A stretch of DNA of 63,230 nt, filler included, from an uncultured Methanosarcinales archaeon (GTDB taxonomy: Archaea > Nanobdellota > Nanobdellia > Woesearchaeales > CAYXTQ01): the NCBI GenBank assembly GCA_964608065.1. It is 22 parts of 22 records of this genome, joined end to end, with 100 filler letters (N's around TTAATTAATTAA, not from the genome) between each part and the next. Parts side by side here need not be neighbours in the genome. Positions count along the whole stretch, not along the records: positions 52,547 to 54,830 come from CAZSMA010000122.1; 21 more parts are not named here. The stretch is one strand, 5' to 3'. Made by a program: the position numbers and the translations under genes. A model generated the notes under the pieces. That model saw nothing but the letters and a program-made list of their open reading frames with translations, did no database searches and was not told the origin of the DNA. The first letter of the stretch is position 1. Each line of letters begins with the position of its first letter. Below, piece after piece: positions 52,547 to 62,673 of this stretch.

Positions 52547-52598
52547 CTTCCCTGTAAGCTCTTACTGTTTCCTGGATTTGTAGTAATAAGTCTTGCAT
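52547..52598 (-). CDS. Start of a second copy of the DGR-target-like gene, truncated at contig end
   Basis: 52547-52601 is identical to 53436-53490 (MQDLLLQIQETVRAYRE). Confidence 0.8.
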
Positions 52599-52641: not shown

Positions 52642-53487
52642 TTAACGCGCCCTGAGGCTCGCTGCGCTCGCGGCCACCGAACGGGAACAGCCACTGCCGT
52701 CGATATGGACGCTGCAACCAATATGGAAGTCACTATTATAACAGTTAAGCGAAACTGCCCTCGATGATTTTTCTAAACGCGTATAATAAGTGTTGTCTTC
52801 AAAAGGCGGTGTCCAAATCTTTATATTGTCTTTAGATTTATTGCTCAATTTTTCAAAAACTTGAATAATTTCTTCTTCTGAATCTTCTGTTTGTAATAAC
52901 TGCCTCAAATAATTAAAGCCTTTACTTTGCTTAAGGACATCTTCTATTTGTTCGCCTCTATAAATAGGGATTTCTAAGTCTATCGGCTCTTTCTGCATTC
53001 TTGAACCAAAGTTATGTACCATTCTTGCATGTTCATCATTAGGATTGTAATTTATTCTCGTGCTGCATAATAACCATCTCTTTTCAAAATCCTTTCTTAA
53101 GGAAGTAAGTAATTTTTCACTAACTTTAGAATCTGTTGTTATATGCTTGAATACCTGATAAAGCTCTGGCATTGAAGGAAACCATCTGTCTTCAAATTTG
53201 TTCCAGTATTTTATCCATTCGCCTTGAGTCTTATAGGCATTATTTTCAGCAGCGACTTCATCCAATGTTAAAAGAATTTTAGGCTTAGGCAGTCTCTGTT
53301 CCAATTCAGAAATTAATGAAACTAATCCTTTTCTTTCTTTCTCTTTTAAGAACTGCTGGGTAGAAGGATTAGACGTGAAGAATGTATGAAGTTCTTCTAT
53401 TCTTTGCAAACTAAGGTTTTCCAAATTATCCCTAGCTTCCCTGTAAGCTCTTACTGTTTCCTGGATTTGTAGTAATAAGTCTTGCAT
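52642..53487 (-). CDS. Probable DGR target (variable) protein
   Basis: C-terminus RAVSLNCYNSDFHIGCSVHIDGSGCSRSV contains 23 consecutive NNY codons, followed by a GC-rich hairpin; ATG at 53487. Confidence 0.7.
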   Translation of the reverse strand: MQDLLLQIQETVRAYREARDNLENLSLQRIEELHTFFTSNPSTQQFLKEKERKGLVSLISELEQRLPKPKILLTLDEVAAENNAYKTQGEWIKYWNKFEDRWFPSMPELYQVFKHITTDSKVSEKLLTSLRKDFEKRWLLCSTRINYNPNDEHARMVHNFGSRMQKEPIDLEIPIYRGEQIEDVLKQSKGFNYLRQLLQTEDSEEEIIQVFEKLSNKSKDNIKIWTPPFEDNTYYTRLEKSSRAVSLNCYNSDFHIGCSVHIDGSGCSRSVAASAASLRAR

Positions 53488-53488
53488 T

Positions 53489-54649
53489 TTATTCCACAAT
53501 CTCTTCAAAAGCTGAAGGTTCACGAAGTAACTGAGCGATTTCTTCACGTGGATTACCTAATTCAAGAGAACTCAACATCAATTCGCCATCCAAATCAGAG
53601 CTAACCTTTATTCTTCCTTGATTTTCACAAGTTCTGATTTCTAATTGTTCCTGTACTTCCATATATGCCTTATTAGCATCAGCTATTAATTTCGGAGCAT
53701 TTTTTATAACATTATCAATGTCCAATAATCCCATGGATATCTCAGAACACTGGTCTATTACATCATAATGAATTTTCAGGTCTGATAAAGCCATAAAACC
53801 GGGATTAACAAGCTCCTGTGACTGTTGCCATTGTTGAAGTAGTAATGCAAACTGATTTTCTAATGATTTATACTTAGGTTTAAGATAGGCTAATTCCAAC
53901 TTTTTGACTTTAAAGACATTTTCTAATTCAAATCTTTTTGATTTATATCTGTCCAAAAGCGATATCCTATTAGCATGCGATTCTAAATCAACAGAAGAAT
54001 AAAACAATTCACTATCCAGATTTTTAACTCGTTGAATCTCCCCCCATCTCGTTTCCCTCTCTTCATCAGAAAGAGCAACATAACCTTCGTAAAAATCAAT
54101 TATGTCTTCTGTTATTCTTTTGTCTTGCTCTATGGCTTCAAAAAAAGCATCACATCTTCTTAACTTTTCTTTTAACTGCGTTCTCTCCTTAACCAAGCCC
54201 TTATATTTTTGCTCAAGCTTATTAAAATTCTCGCTTAGCTGGGCTAAGGCTTTATGTCCTTGAGATATCTCATTTTCCATAGCTACAATTGATTCAAGAA
54301 GTTTTGTTTTCTTGGAGTTCTTGGGTTTTGGACTTTTTCTTATAAAAGCCAAATAAGCCCTTTTAAACCATGAATGTTCAGTTTTATAAGCCTCTAAATC
54401 ATTTTTCCTTGCTTTTTCCAATGCTTCTGTATGGCTTATAATTTTGTCATCAGGAATGCAAAGTTGAAGCACTAGCTCCTTATATAGGTCTTGTGCAAAG
54501 GATGAATTATTTGATTGCGTTAATAAAACAAGGTTTCTTTCTCCAGTCAAAGCCAAAGTATTAAGCCCAATTTCAGTTTCAAGTTTAACAAGACTTTTAT
54601 CTTGATTTTGGTCATCTGTTCTGTATTCTGTAATATCTGCTCCAGCCAT
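53489..54649 (-). CDS. Coiled-coil hypothetical protein
   Basis: 386 aa with long helical/heptad segments; stop lies 1 nt from the next ATG. Confidence 0.75.
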   Translation of the reverse strand: MAGADITEYRTDDQNQDKSLVKLETEIGLNTLALTGERNLVLLTQSNNSSFAQDLYKELVLQLCIPDDKIISHTEALEKARKNDLEAYKTEHSWFKRAYLAFIRKSPKPKNSKKTKLLESIVAMENEISQGHKALAQLSENFNKLEQKYKGLVKERTQLKEKLRRCDAFFEAIEQDKRITEDIIDFYEGYVALSDEERETRWGEIQRVKNLDSELFYSSVDLESHANRISLLDRYKSKRFELENVFKVKKLELAYLKPKYKSLENQFALLLQQWQQSQELVNPGFMALSDLKIHYDVIDQCSEISMGLLDIDNVIKNAPKLIADANKAYMEVQEQLEIRTCENQGRIKVSSDLDGELMLSSLELGNPREEIAQLLREPSAFEEIVE

Positions 54650-54717: not shown

Positions 54718-54830
54718 TTATTTTCCAAATCTTCTTTGTCTAGATTCAACTTCTTTTATTGCAATTTCTAAATCTTTTTTAGTAAACTCTGGCCAGAATT
54801 TATCCATAAAATAAAGTTCAGAATAAGCTA
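54718..54830 (-). CDS. uppS: Undecaprenyl/polyprenyl diphosphate synthase C-terminus, 5' partial
   Basis: [15 protein letters not shown]...RQRRFGK. Confidence 0.9.
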
Positions 54831-57563: not shown

Positions 57564-58874
57564 TTAAGAGGCTATTGCACTTAAATTCTTAAATAAGTTC
57601 TTCCCTTGTAATTTCCATGTATGTAATACTGAAACTACAATGTCAATCCATCGTTTACCTTTTTCGTTTCTGTAGCACCCTATTGTCTTTCTTAAAAGAA
57701 CAATAGGTCTTAATTCTCTTTCTGCATGATTATTATCTAATGGTACACCTTTATAATACAATGCTGTAAACCAATCTTCGCCTCCATTTTTGATAAGTGT
57801 TCTTAGACCTTTTGCTCCTTGAATAACTTTCAAGCATGTTACAATATCATTCAATATCCATTTTGCTTTTTTTATTTCTTTTTCATCAGGTGGTTTTGTA
57901 TTAAGCACTTTAATGGTTTCATAAAGTGCTTTTAGTCTTGCATATTGTGTTTCTATTTCTTTATTGTTTTTAACATAATCTTTGAATTCTCTAATAAGAT
58001 GCGACCAGCATCTTTGTTTTAAGGGAAAGATATCATATGCATTATATCCATCAACTACGATTATTCCTTTGAAGTTTTTGAGCAATTCTTGGATATTTAT
58101 TCTTGCCCTGCTCATTGTTGCACTTAGAATCGATATTGTTTTAGTAAAAACTCCCCACACATAACCATTTTGTCCGTCTTTTCTAAAACTTGTTTCATCA
58201 GCATGAGCATAACTTGCCTTATTTAACTCTTCCAGCAATGATTCTCTTTTGCTCTCAAGTTTATTTGCAAACCTATCCGTTATCTTTTGCACTTCAACAT
58301 CACTAAAACTGGGAGCACCAAGTTCCCTTATAAAATCTGCAATCTTTCTATGAGAATTGGTGAGATTCTTGAGCATTACAACAATACTTTGAATATTCTT
58401 GCCATAGATATTTTTAGGTAAAAAAACATTAGCTGTAACTATTTTTCCAGTACTTGGAGAAATATATTTCATAATCCGATGCTCAATTACTCTTATTGGC
58501 TTGTCAGGAAAATCAATTATTATCTTCTTCAAATATCCAACTGGTTTTCCCAAGGGCAAACCAGTAACTGGACAGAAATCAAGTTTGTGTTCTACAACTT
58601 CATCAGGTTCAGGAAGTTTTATTCCACCACCATTGCTACCCTTAGGCTTACCTGGAAAACGAGGTTTATCCTCTTCATTATCTTGATTTTTTTTTGTATT
58701 ATTTTTTCTTTTCTTGGATGATGGTGTATGCGGATTATCAAAAGCTTTAAGATAATGCTCAATTTTAATTAAACGTTCTTCAAGATCTTGTCGCATTTTA
58801 CGTTCTTTAAGAAGTAATCTAACTAATTCACTTTTACTTAGCTTTTTTAATTCCTTTTTTACAGACAAGAACAA
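57564..58874 (-). CDS. IS66 family transposase
   Basis: HADET, VVDGY.AY, QRCWSHLIRE, VPLDNNHAERELR. Confidence 0.95.
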   Translation of the reverse strand: MFLSVKKELKKLSKSELVRLLLKERKMRQDLEERLIKIEHYLKAFDNPHTPSSKKRKNNTKKNQDNEEDKPRFPGKPKGSNGGGIKLPEPDEVVEHKLDFCPVTGLPLGKPVGYLKKIIIDFPDKPIRVIEHRIMKYISPSTGKIVTANVFLPKNIYGKNIQSIVVMLKNLTNSHRKIADFIRELGAPSFSDVEVQKITDRFANKLESKRESLLEELNKASYAHADETSFRKDGQNGYVWGVFTKTISILSATMSRARINIQELLKNFKGIIVVDGYNAYDIFPLKQRCWSHLIREFKDYVKNNKEIETQYARLKALYETIKVLNTKPPDEKEIKKAKWILNDIVTCLKVIQGAKGLRTLIKNGGEDWFTALYYKGVPLDNNHAERELRPIVLLRKTIGCYRNEKGKRWIDIVVSVLHTWKLQGKNLFKNLSAIAS

Positions 58875-59355: not shown

Positions 59356-60129
59356 GATTACGGGGCTAGGTTTTATGATGCGGCTCTAGGGAGATTCCAT
59401 ACTATTGACCCGCTGGCAGAGAAGTTTCCATGGCAATCTCCTTATTGCTATGCAGGAAATAATCCTATTAGGTTCATTGATTATAATGGACTGGGGCCAG
59501 GAGATAGAGTTAAAGCTGCACGAAGTATGACTGGAATTGAATACAAACAGGAAACTGAATCTTCAATGAGAACCGCAAATACTGCAGAAGCGAGACAGTA
59601 TATGGACTGCGCTGAATTTGTTTGTAGGGTACTTGGAGCAGACCAAATAACAGATGGAGTTCAACACATGAATTCATCTGGTTTAAAAAGTTACTTTGAC
59701 AATAAAGACAAGTTTATTAATTCTGCTGACCCGCAAGTTGGAGATGTTGCTGTATGGAAAGGTCATGTTGGCGTGGTTACCGAAGTTGGAGAAGATGGAA
59801 AGATAAAATTAACTCATGCCCGAGGTGCTGGAAAATTATCTAAGGAAAACCCATATGCGATATCTCCAGAACAATATCGTGACTCTGAGTTTTATGGATA
59901 TTATAGACCAGTAGCCGAAACACCTGATGGAAAAATTGATAATAACGGGAATCCTGTTACTACAAATAATCAATCTGCCAATTCTACAGGAAGTTTTGAT
60001 TTGACACCACAGCCTGAAACGGCAGTACAAGACAATACAAGGGTTGTTAATAATTCATTTATTCAACAAATAAACAATTTACCACAAGGGAATTACAAAG
60101 TTGTAAATGGCCAAATCGTGCCTCAATAA
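59356..60129 (+). CDS. Rhs core C-terminus with NlpC/P60(CHAP)-like toxin domain, 5' partial
   Basis: [23 protein letters not shown]...[18 protein letters not shown], then MDCAEFV...[15 protein letters not shown]...HA. Confidence 0.85.
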
Positions 60130-60136
60130 ATAGATT

Positions 60137-60733
60137 ATGAAACTGGTAGCATTTTTCATATTATTATATGGATGTACTCAATCGAATAGTTTGAAAACTC
60201 ATTCTAATGAAGTATCCCAAATAACTCAGGATTCTTTAATGCAGTATGCAAAAAAAGAATTTGAAATCATAGAGTTAGAGCAAAAGGGAGATACCCTATT
60301 AATTGTTTCTACAAATAAGGTGTTGTTTTATCCGTTCGGTAAATATGCAAATTTCAAAGAATTTAAAGATGGGTACTTAGTTAAACGCGATTTAAAGGTA
60401 AGGATAGATTCGTCTTTTAATATTTTTAGAATATTCAGTATAGAAAATGAAAAGACTAATGTTAAATTGATAGAGAATACAGAAACAGAAAGGCTGGAAC
60501 TTTTTAAAGCAGATATTAGGGATAATTCTTTCGAGTTGTTTTATGGTATAAGGTTAGGCATGAAGAAAGACGAGGTATTCTTGCAATTTTTTGTCAAAAC
60601 TCCTCCTGGATTAAATCACATAAGGACAATTAAAATAGCGTCTGGTTTAGAAGGTATCTGGTATTACTTCAATTTTTCAACAAAGGAACAACTTGAAAAT
60701 ATTATAATAGAAAGTGATTATGTTCTTGACTGA
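60137..60733 (+). CDS. Putative immunity lipoprotein
   Basis: Lipobox-like LYGC; directly downstream of the Rhs toxin domain. Confidence 0.6.
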   Translation: MKLVAFFILLYGCTQSNSLKTHSNEVSQITQDSLMQYAKKEFEIIELEQKGDTLLIVSTNKVLFYPFGKYANFKEFKDGYLVKRDLKVRIDSSFNIFRIFSIENEKTNVKLIENTETERLELFKADIRDNSFELFYGIRLGMKKDEVFLQFFVKTPPGLNHIRTIKIASGLEGIWYYFNFSTKEQLENIIIESDYVLD

Positions 60734-60746
60734 TATCAAAAAAACC

Positions 60747-60775
60747 CGCTTGCGCTCGTTTGCAACGAGTGCAGC
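60747..60775 (+). terminator. Hairpin (terminator or REP-like)
   Basis: GCGCTCGTT-TGC-AACGAGTGC. Confidence 0.4.
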
Positions 60776-61256
60776 TAATGCAGCCTACCGGCCAGCTATC
60801 AAACCTACCCCAAGAAATAAATTTTGCTTCCGGCAATAAAATTCGTTATTTTTACACGGCCGATGGTTTAAAACAAAAAAAGGAAGTGTACGAGGATAGC
60901 CTAAAAACAAGTGAGATGAGTTATAAAGGTTCTTTTATTTATGAAGAAACGGGTTTAGCTTATGTCTTGTTTGATGAGGGACGTTTGTTGAAAGATGGAA
61001 CAAGTTATACTTACGAATACTTTCTAAAAGACCATTTAGGAAACACAAGAGTCAGTTTTACAAAAGATGGCACAATAATACAGAAGTTACAAGAAGACCA
61101 TTATTATCCTTTTGGAATGGCTTTCCAGGGCGTAAACAGCTCTATTTTAAGCCCAGAGAATAAATACAAATACAACGGCAAAGTTGGAGCGCAGCGGAAA
61201 TCCCGATCCTTCGGGAAGCTAAACGATGAGCTGGATTTAGACTGGTACGATTACGG
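60760..61256 (+). pseudogene. Orphan Rhs core fragment
   Basis: Y.YTADG.K, EGR, YEYFLKDHLGNTRV, YYPFG, YKYNGK...DWYDY; no Rhs N-terminus. Confidence 0.8.
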
Positions 61257-61521
61257 NNNNNNNNNNNNNNNNNNNNNNNNNNNNNNNNNNNNNNNNNNNN
61301 TTAATTAATTAANNNNNNNNNNNNNNNNNNNNNNNNNNNNNNNNNNNNNNNNNNNNAATAAAGAGTTATAATGGGAATACTATTATTTATTTGGATTCAT
61401 ACAACACAGCATATACTTGACTGCCATAATGTTTATATATTAGTTAACCTTATAGTATATATATTAACTAAATAAGATAAGCCCAAAGGAGACGAAGTTT
61501 TGAGCCAACATCTCCCCTGGT

Positions 61522-62673
61522 ATGGAGTCCGGAATGAACCCCAATAAAGAAAGTAAAACAAAGGAATTTAATAAAGCTTTTCATAATCTGAAATCTAAAG
61601 AGATAAAGAAAATTACAAGACTTCTCAAGAAACAAATTTATCCTTTAATAGATTTAAAGATGTATCACAATTCTAAATATTCTGAAGATGATTTTCTTGA
61701 TTTATTAACTTATGTTGCAATGAATCATGATTTTACCAACAATGGATCTAAAACTTTTGAATTGTTAAAAGAAAACACTCCTGCATCAAATACAGTTATT
61801 CACCATATCAAAAAGCTTAATTCTGATTATGTTGAAAATTTATTCACAAAGGTATTTGATGTTTTAATCAAATCAGCAACTAAACATAAACCCTTCAAAC
61901 AAAAAGTTGACTTAGCAATAGATATTACAGAACAAATGTATTATGGAGATAAAAATGATTATATGGTCTGTGAGACAAAGCCAAAAGACGGAACTTCTCA
62001 TTGTTTTAGATACATAACAATAAATGTAGTTGAAAACGGAAAAAGATTTACTTTACTTGCCTTGCCAATGCATAAATTTACAACTAAAGCAAAAGTTGTA
62101 AGAAAGTTAATTGAATATGCAAAATCAAAAGTTAAAATAAGACATATTTACCTTGACAGAGGATTCTTCAATTCAGAAATAATTAATCTCCTGAAAGAAT
62201 TAAGAGTTAAGTTTCTGATGCCTGCTATTAAGAACATAAAAATTCAAAGATACATGGGTAAATATAGCGGGTTGCAATCAAAAATTATAGATTATGATAT
62301 GGGCTACAGGAAATACAACAGGGCTGAATTTAAGCTTGTTTTCGTCGATGATAAAACAGGAGTGCAAAGAGCATTCGCAACAAATATTCCAATGCCTGAA
62401 CAATTAGCACATTATTATTTCAGGTGGTACAGTAAAAGATGGGGAATTGAAACTTCTTATAGGGTTAAAGGGGATTTTAAACCAAGAACAACATCAAAAT
62501 ATTATTCAGTAAGATTATTTTATTTTATGTGGTCTGTTTGTCTGTATAATCTCTGGGTTTTAGTTAGTTTCTTAGTTGCTTTAGTTTTTCATATTGAAAT
62601 CAAAAAACCATTAGTTACTGCTAAACTATTTGGAGCAATTCTCTATTCTCAAAAACCAGAAGGAATAACATAA
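61522..62673 (+). mobile_element. ISH3-family (IS4-like DDE) transposase
   Basis: LAIDITEQMYYG, RFTLLALP, YLDRGFF, YSKRWGIETSYR, LYNLW. Confidence 0.85.

Follow-up and report, generated by a model that had tools for sequence, protein, structure and literature searches.

The gene that we call T1 (P0001; 52642..53487, minus strand, with its ATG at 53487 and its stop at 52642) encodes 281 amino acids and is very probably an orphan DGR target, either acted on in trans or a fossil. Its host is a small groundwater archaeon of the Nanoarchaeota (DPANN) type. Stand-alone DGR targets are already known; T1 is a further one, in an unannotated family distinct from that of AvpA. Whether its variable region is still being diversified is, in our judgement, evenly balanced. 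The first-pass annotation had proposed a chromosomal DGR target from a run of NNY codons, and this reading is borne out by relatives that are bona fide DGR targets, by an AvpA-like predicted C-type-lectin fold and by the chromosomal site. Codon pattern alone can thus reveal targets that RT-anchored surveys miss.

In the mechanism that we propose, a DGR RT of the type found in genome G061, for which a 557-residue protein is the candidate, would copy an AAY-rich template RNA and misread its adenines, the template lying elsewhere in the genome or having been lost. The cDNA would replace the T1 variable region, the last 27 codons, guided by an IMH-like 3′ end and perhaps also by a GCGNAGC mini-hairpin, and would change the putative ligand-binding face of the protein, whose ligand may be the surface of a host cell or of a virus. 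Segments would be exchanged between T1 alleles, and the 889-base T1 unit would have arisen, or would be lost, by recombination via a 5′ leader common with the next gene. Action in trans is something that we infer, because no cognate template was found.

The contig and its true host

The window, meaning the whole stretch of 63,230 nucleotides analysed, consists of 22 contigs with N spacers between them. The N blocks part unrelated contigs, so the real context of T1 is its own contig, C122 (52547-54830, 2284 bases). Read along the minus strand, C122 carries the 3′ end of uppS (54718..54830), an ORF of 386 amino acids (53489..54649), T1, a 43-base spacer and a 52-base repeat. The annotation placed the locus beside uppS, and correctly: 54830-54718 encodes the last 36 residues of UppS, all 36 identical to the UppS of metagenome locus L006, with a TIGR00055 match over cut-off. 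The 386-residue protein, whose stop lies one base before the T1 start, is coiled-coil-like and of no known family. It had no Pfam or NCBIfam match over cut-off, its Atlas leads were all below 0.9, and it did not match the N-terminal parts of fused T1-family members; it is 100% identical in L006 and 38% identical in L007.

Judged by sequence identity, C122 is misbinned, and its true owner is the species of G061 and L006 rather than the main organism of the bin (G000). We place it in that species because C122 has no differences from L006 across its first 1351 bases, because G061 matches L006 upstream (100% and 96%) on a contig that stops at the start of uppS while another G061 contig, L009, starts within a T1 allele, and because the bin holds its own uppS (48% amino acid identity to that of L006) and its own trm1 (46% to that of L007) elsewhere. 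By the same comparison, C122 is the piece that fills most of the G061 gap between uppS and the T1 allele. The other L006 genes had no close match in the bin. By tetranucleotide correlation C122 could not be told apart from G000, and the misbinning stands on the identities above.

This bears on how searches of the bin are read. The annotation had proposed looking for DGR RT and Avd genes: G061 has two such RTs, and the bin, which is the wrong genome, has neither a DGR RT nor Avd (PF22296). Because C122 is misbinned, their lack in the bin says nothing about the organism that owns T1, and a template search there is equally uninformative. We note as a caution that an own-bin search with a misbinned contig falsely implies absence of a DGR RT. 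The sole RT of the bin (C86; L001:627-1873) was dropped as a DGR candidate; it is a retron-like protein of 309 amino acids with a WIDD motif, behind a small HTH gene, and its best NCBIfam matches are retron models, all below cut-off. RT pieces from G015 found no match in G000 either. Other small contigs in the window carry an IS66-family transposase, a DDE transposase and a CHAP-domain ORF (57564-58874, 61522-62673 and 59527-61308); the contig of the CHAP-domain ORF, with a small neighbour and a fragment that looks Rhs-like by eye, has a bacterial look and may be misbinned too.

As the annotation held, the site is no obvious provirus: uppS and trm1 flank it, and this order is kept in the related locus L007. 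A DNA pattern made from the flank of the variable region had no matches in viral contigs.

The codon run and the family's complete DGRs

The 23 consecutive NNY codons that the annotation had quoted, all ending in C or T, are in place at 52749-52681, and the run is richer in GC than the rest of T1 (46% versus 34% in the first 738 bases). Outside it, 42% of third bases are pyrimidines. Among the 1012 complete ORFs of at least 150 amino acids in the bin, T1 has the longest NNY run and is the sole one with a run of at least 22; inside the last 45 codons, the next best ORF reaches 13. The signal itself stands, but the figure of 1e-7 attached to it exaggerates its rarity, because 4/1012 ORFs have runs of at least 20. 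Three of these, with 20-21 NNY codons, are other ORFs in Asn/Asp/Cys-rich proteins, and codons for Asn, Asp, Cys, His, Phe and Tyr must end in a pyrimidine. Both facts favour a reading without DGR history, in which the run reflects the composition (Asn, Asp, Cys, Ser, Gly, His, Tyr) of an ordinary variable surface loop. We consider this scarcely credible, as within the run the codons for Gly, Val, Leu, Arg, Ile and Ser likewise all end in C or T, the region aligns to family templates without gaps, the predicted fold is AvpA-like, and family members occur in complete DGRs whose adenine-specific template/target pairs largely refute it.

We return to T1 as a DGR target. Its family comprises 316 relatives among cluster representatives at E<=0.001. 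Searches with T1 against Pfam, NCBIfam and PDB sequences found nothing, and no Pfam family is common to 112 members. The nearest Atlas clusters are unnamed and, where a taxon is given, mostly Nanobdellota; two close relatives are labelled Nanoarchaeota. Matches to T1 occur in 3/61 genomes around the bin, counting the bin itself and one weak match, and a profile of the 112 sequences finds matches in 11/31 genomes around G061.

Family members adjoin a template and an RT in G015, G078 and G087. Differences within these cognate template/target pairs fall almost entirely on adenines: 7/27, 12/27 and 15/27 adenines changed in G078, against 0/54, 0/54 and 1/54 other bases; 10/25 against 1/56 in G087; and 12/21 against 1/66 in G015. 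One of the G078 targets, P0005, is 47% identical to T1. Two targets sit on contigs other than that of their template (G078 C70, 15/27 versus 1/54; G015 C22, 7/21 versus 5/66), so targeting at a distance is a trait of the family. The AAY-rich template that the annotation had guessed for T1 closely resembles these real templates. It had also named what would tell against its reading, namely the lack of an A-rich template or DGR RT in this genome or close relatives, and homologues with an invariant C-terminus; what we find are family members in complete DGRs of three genomes and a rewritten tip in the L009 allele.

The variable region of T1 with its 5′ anchor spans 81 bases (27 codons; 52681..52761, minus strand), is rewritten in the L009 allele, and aligns gap-free to the G078 and G087 templates. 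Neither template is cognate: 12/54 and 17/56 non-adenine positions differ. Adenines are nonetheless enriched among the changes. Against the G078 template, 12/26 adenines and 4/28 other bases are changed at codon positions 1-2 (p 0.011; all positions, p 0.018); against that of G087, the enrichment gives p 0.0076 at codon positions 1-2 and p 0.054 at all positions.

The likely IMH-type 3′ end of the region lies at 52675..52692 (minus strand), is of the GTG type and is the same in both alleles. At this site, family targets read NNG/NNA GTG and templates NNA ATG, a contrast drawn from 10 targets including T1 and 3 templates that were themselves chosen by a motif spanning that very site. Further on, within the coding sequence, GCGCAGC (52661..52667, minus strand) is a candidate cis hairpin. 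The motif GCGNAGC, described as a stable mini-hairpin (PMC13037366), occurs no more than 60 bases past the variable region in 8/10 family targets and 0/3 templates. Folding found no long-stem hairpin 3′ of the T1 variable region (z 0.37); the GCGCAGC stem has 2 pairs, and several relatives have a longer stem.

Some further features of the family were seen in passing. Its targets often lie 3′ of AAA ATPase genes, CDC48-like or MoxR-like (L014, L178, L188, L027), and several place the variable region internally, with a further C-terminal domain behind it. The G015 C22 target's variable region (L005:1170-1330, 1474-2235) fits the L003 template better than it fits the adjacent template-like repeat. 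One syntenic member, found between amidohydrolase-like and housekeeping genes in two genomes (L021 on G061 C42; L172 on G062 C10), is without the terminal NNY run and is possibly a domesticated, non-variable copy.

Machinery, templates and allelic variation

The G061 assembly is fragmented, and some foreign contigs of high GC are mixed in. It encodes two YVDD-type DGR RTs, on C57 and C127, and a second T1-family target, on C62 behind an AAA ATPase. The C57 RT has its own adjacent target and template, of another family (11/20 adenines versus 1/55 other bases changed). The C127 RT is intact (557 amino acids) and is without an adjacent template. It scores highest against the G078 RT, the one serving the T1 family (55% across 490 amino acids), mainly via a common C-terminal extension; as core identities are 52-64% to all family RTs, we treat it as a candidate only. 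C127 itself resembles a dispersed DGR (L027:1-5192), with the RT, a MoxR-like ATPase and two tandem targets that share a leader. One of these targets is weakly AvpA-like (E 0.009), and an in-frame TGA interrupts it ahead of the variable region. C90 holds a degenerate, template-like copy (L116:230-470), which mismatches the variable region of that target at 10 adenines and also at 10 non-adenine positions.

The annotation had suggested searching for a copy of the T1 region that differs only at template adenines. None was found in the bin, by BLAST or an adenine-tolerant scan, or in G061, where the adenine-tolerant scan covered 1,094,731 bases of about 1.4 Mb and three patterns covered the whole assembly (about 0.3 Mb of it by patterns alone). 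In 151 genomes, a template-end pattern returned known non-cognate templates and targets only, plus one G078 site; in JGI metagenome contigs, 0/53 pattern matches to T1 were confirmed. Closer by, the 10 kb upstream of T1 seen in L006 and the 4.5 kb downstream seen in L009 hold neither RT nor template. Of the two locations that the annotation had offered for them, the one beyond the contig break is occupied instead by a second target-like gene and trm1; the other, action in trans, is the one that we retain as a proposal.

The allele on L009 differs from T1 unevenly. Over successive blocks, 1/162, 29/130 (16 of them third-position), 6/147 and 12/41 bases differ, the 29/130 block being mid-gene and the 12/41 block directly upstream of the variable region. 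Within the variable region, the first half differs at 5/39 bases, all at codon positions 1-2; the second half has more differences, a one-codon indel and at least two third-base changes. L009 keeps its own 24-codon NNY run. The X1 contig has the variable region of the window unchanged, as seen in contigs, which drop rare variants. A second T1 allele coexists with it mid-gene (at similar contig depth, 7.2 and 5.9) and equals the L009 allele at five positions checked by eye. The 29/130 and 12/41 blocks, with the length and third-base differences, mean that a single template cannot explain the alleles. The pattern fits DGR mutagenesis combined with segmental recombination or template drift, and is not a clean single-template pattern.

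An orphan target could be of two kinds. T1 may be a fossil, written by a past DGR whose template is gone, its present variation arising from recombination between alleles and ordinary mutation. The failure to find a template in the bin or G061 agrees with this, as do the block-wise divergence of the alleles, synonymous changes included, the weak hairpin at T1, the decayed look of other G061 DGR parts (the C90 copy, the stop in the C127 target) and the C42 family member that lacks a terminal NNY run. Yet the fragmented G061 assembly contains neither uppS nor the 5′ end of T1, so a template may be absent from it too; unbroken runs of 23-24 NNY codons in both alleles would erode without renewal or selection; and the C127 RT is intact. 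On balance we hold the fossil to be a real but somewhat less than even prospect.

Whichever kind of orphan target T1 is, there are precedents. For RT-less DGR targets in Nanoarchaeota, two readings have been put forward, a fossil state and diversification from a distance (Paul et al. 2015, PMC4372165). The partial DGRs of DUSEL4 described there resemble T1 in having a variable region and cis elements with no RT near, in a DPANN host with several DGRs, and share with it a G/A contrast between IMH and IMH* and, if the candidate hairpin of T1 is one, a hairpin placed within the coding sequence. They differ in target family and in showing adenine bias against templates of the same genome, where T1 has no cognate template found and, as a hairpin, only the 2-pair GCA mini-hairpin. 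Among DGRs more broadly, about 15% have several targets, and 45/372 have non-adjacent ones (Wu et al. 2018, PMC5758913).

Predicted fold, the neighbouring gene and shared leaders

The annotation had called for a structure prediction in search of a CLec-like fold, and a C-type lectin of AvpA type was obtained. The model, built with the alignment of 112 sequences, has a pLDDT of 93.5 (37 for a single-sequence model). It comprises a predicted helical N-terminal leader (residues 1-69; 53281..53487, minus strand), which is 73.5% identical over 68 amino acids to P0004, whose start also matches the T1 ATG, and a predicted C-type-lectin domain (residues 70-272; 52672..53280, minus strand), whose last strands the variable region would span. 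Among 48,161 chains, the two closest to residues 70-272 of the model are the DGR variable proteins AvpA (5IOO; Z 11.2, rmsd 3.6, 168 residues aligned) and TaqVP (5VF4; Z 8.6), followed by animal C-type lectins. Foldseek also ranks 5IOO first (E 5.7e-3), with no match at E<=0.001. The T1 product is thus predicted to be a C-type-lectin-fold binding protein.

For AvpA, the fold, a variable region near the C-terminus as in T1, and relatives in Woesearchaeota have been described (Handa et al. 2016, PMC5006420). The differences from T1 are considerable: identity is 14%, the 112-sequence profile does not find 5IOO at E<=10, AvpA ends in an RFXGV motif where the T1-family consensus has GRSRGV, and T1 has the extra 69-residue helical leader. 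The T1 family is a sequence family separate from that of AvpA, with the fold alone in common. It may already be listed in Supplementary Fig. 4 of PMC4372165 or in the target tables of PMC8144416. A fold and a DGR role can now be assigned to an unannotated family with 316 representatives.

The final 52 bases of C122 ahead of the break (52547..52598, minus strand) are an exact copy of the first 52 bases of T1. We assign them to a second gene, T2 (P0004 type), of which the contig retains only the 5′ end. The full gene is on L009, in the order T1 allele (P0002), T2, trm1, and the X1 contig likewise continues from T1 into T2. No homology between the T2 body and the T1 family could be detected (HHalign probability 0.3%). 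Judging by its sequence, T2 also resembles a target: between two conspecific alleles, 4 of the first 759 bases differ and the last 150 are heavily changed, and the gene has a strong triloop hairpin (z -3.4). Relatives of T2 were found in 7/41 genomes.

In L006 and the X3 and X4 contigs, and in the more distant L007, the upstream gene is joined directly to T2, without T1. T1 therefore appears to be present in some conspecific sequences and missing in others. Only these joins were used, because zero cover of the T1 body in X3, X4 and X6 proves nothing alone. Could the tandem arrangement or the T1-less form be an assembly artefact of the common 5′ repeat? The contig of the window does break inside the repeat, and the support comes from assembled contigs, not reads, with L006, X3 and X4 possibly not independent samples. 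Against this, T1, T2 and trm1 are on one L009 contig and T1 and T2 on one X1 contig, and in the junction gene of L006, X3 and X4 the T2-type base appears as early as codon 3, so that a false join would have only about 11 common bases to act on. We regard an artefact as very unlikely. Taking both forms as real, the locus offers natural plus and minus strains as well as alleles, which bears on what DPANN DGR targets do.

The leader of T1 and T2 (leader A) is found on both scaffolds, in P0001 and P0004. A second, leader B, is likewise on both: P0003, of the T1 family, carries it, and so does the L008 gene, of the T2 family, with 85% identity across 27 amino acids. A third, behind a MoxR-like ATPase, joins a T1 scaffold in G078 and an AvpA-like scaffold in G061, a weak case (E 1.4e-4). 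From these two clear cases and one weak one we tentatively raise the possibility, which we hold less likely than not, of a two-level diversifier. Locus-specific leaders would be recombined with interchangeable, unrelated hypervariable scaffolds, each mutated by a DGR in trans; strains would gain and lose cassettes via the common leader, and the upstream gene's product would serve the fixed leaders as a docking partner. It has been suggested that C-terminal lectin regions acquire their N-terminal domains by fusion through intragenic recombination (Roux et al. 2021, PMC8144416). As set out in that work and in PMC5758913, known targets differ from T1 and T2, which combine one leader with two scaffolds lacking detectable homology, in tandem and with presence/absence. 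We found no description of one leader with alternative unrelated scaffolds, in tandem and present or absent among conspecifics, in the literature searched, whose scope did not take in the main DPANN/CPR survey (Paul et al. 2017).

If leader-scaffold exchange were systematic, it would add a combinatorial layer to point hypermutation, and a leader common to two scaffolds points to a candidate partner protein. A smaller observation concerns the T2 hairpin, whose three loop bases are inverted between alleles, GTA versus TAC (L006:10905-10930, L009:1552-1577). In L009 the stop codon is lost through the inversion, and the protein is 9 residues longer.
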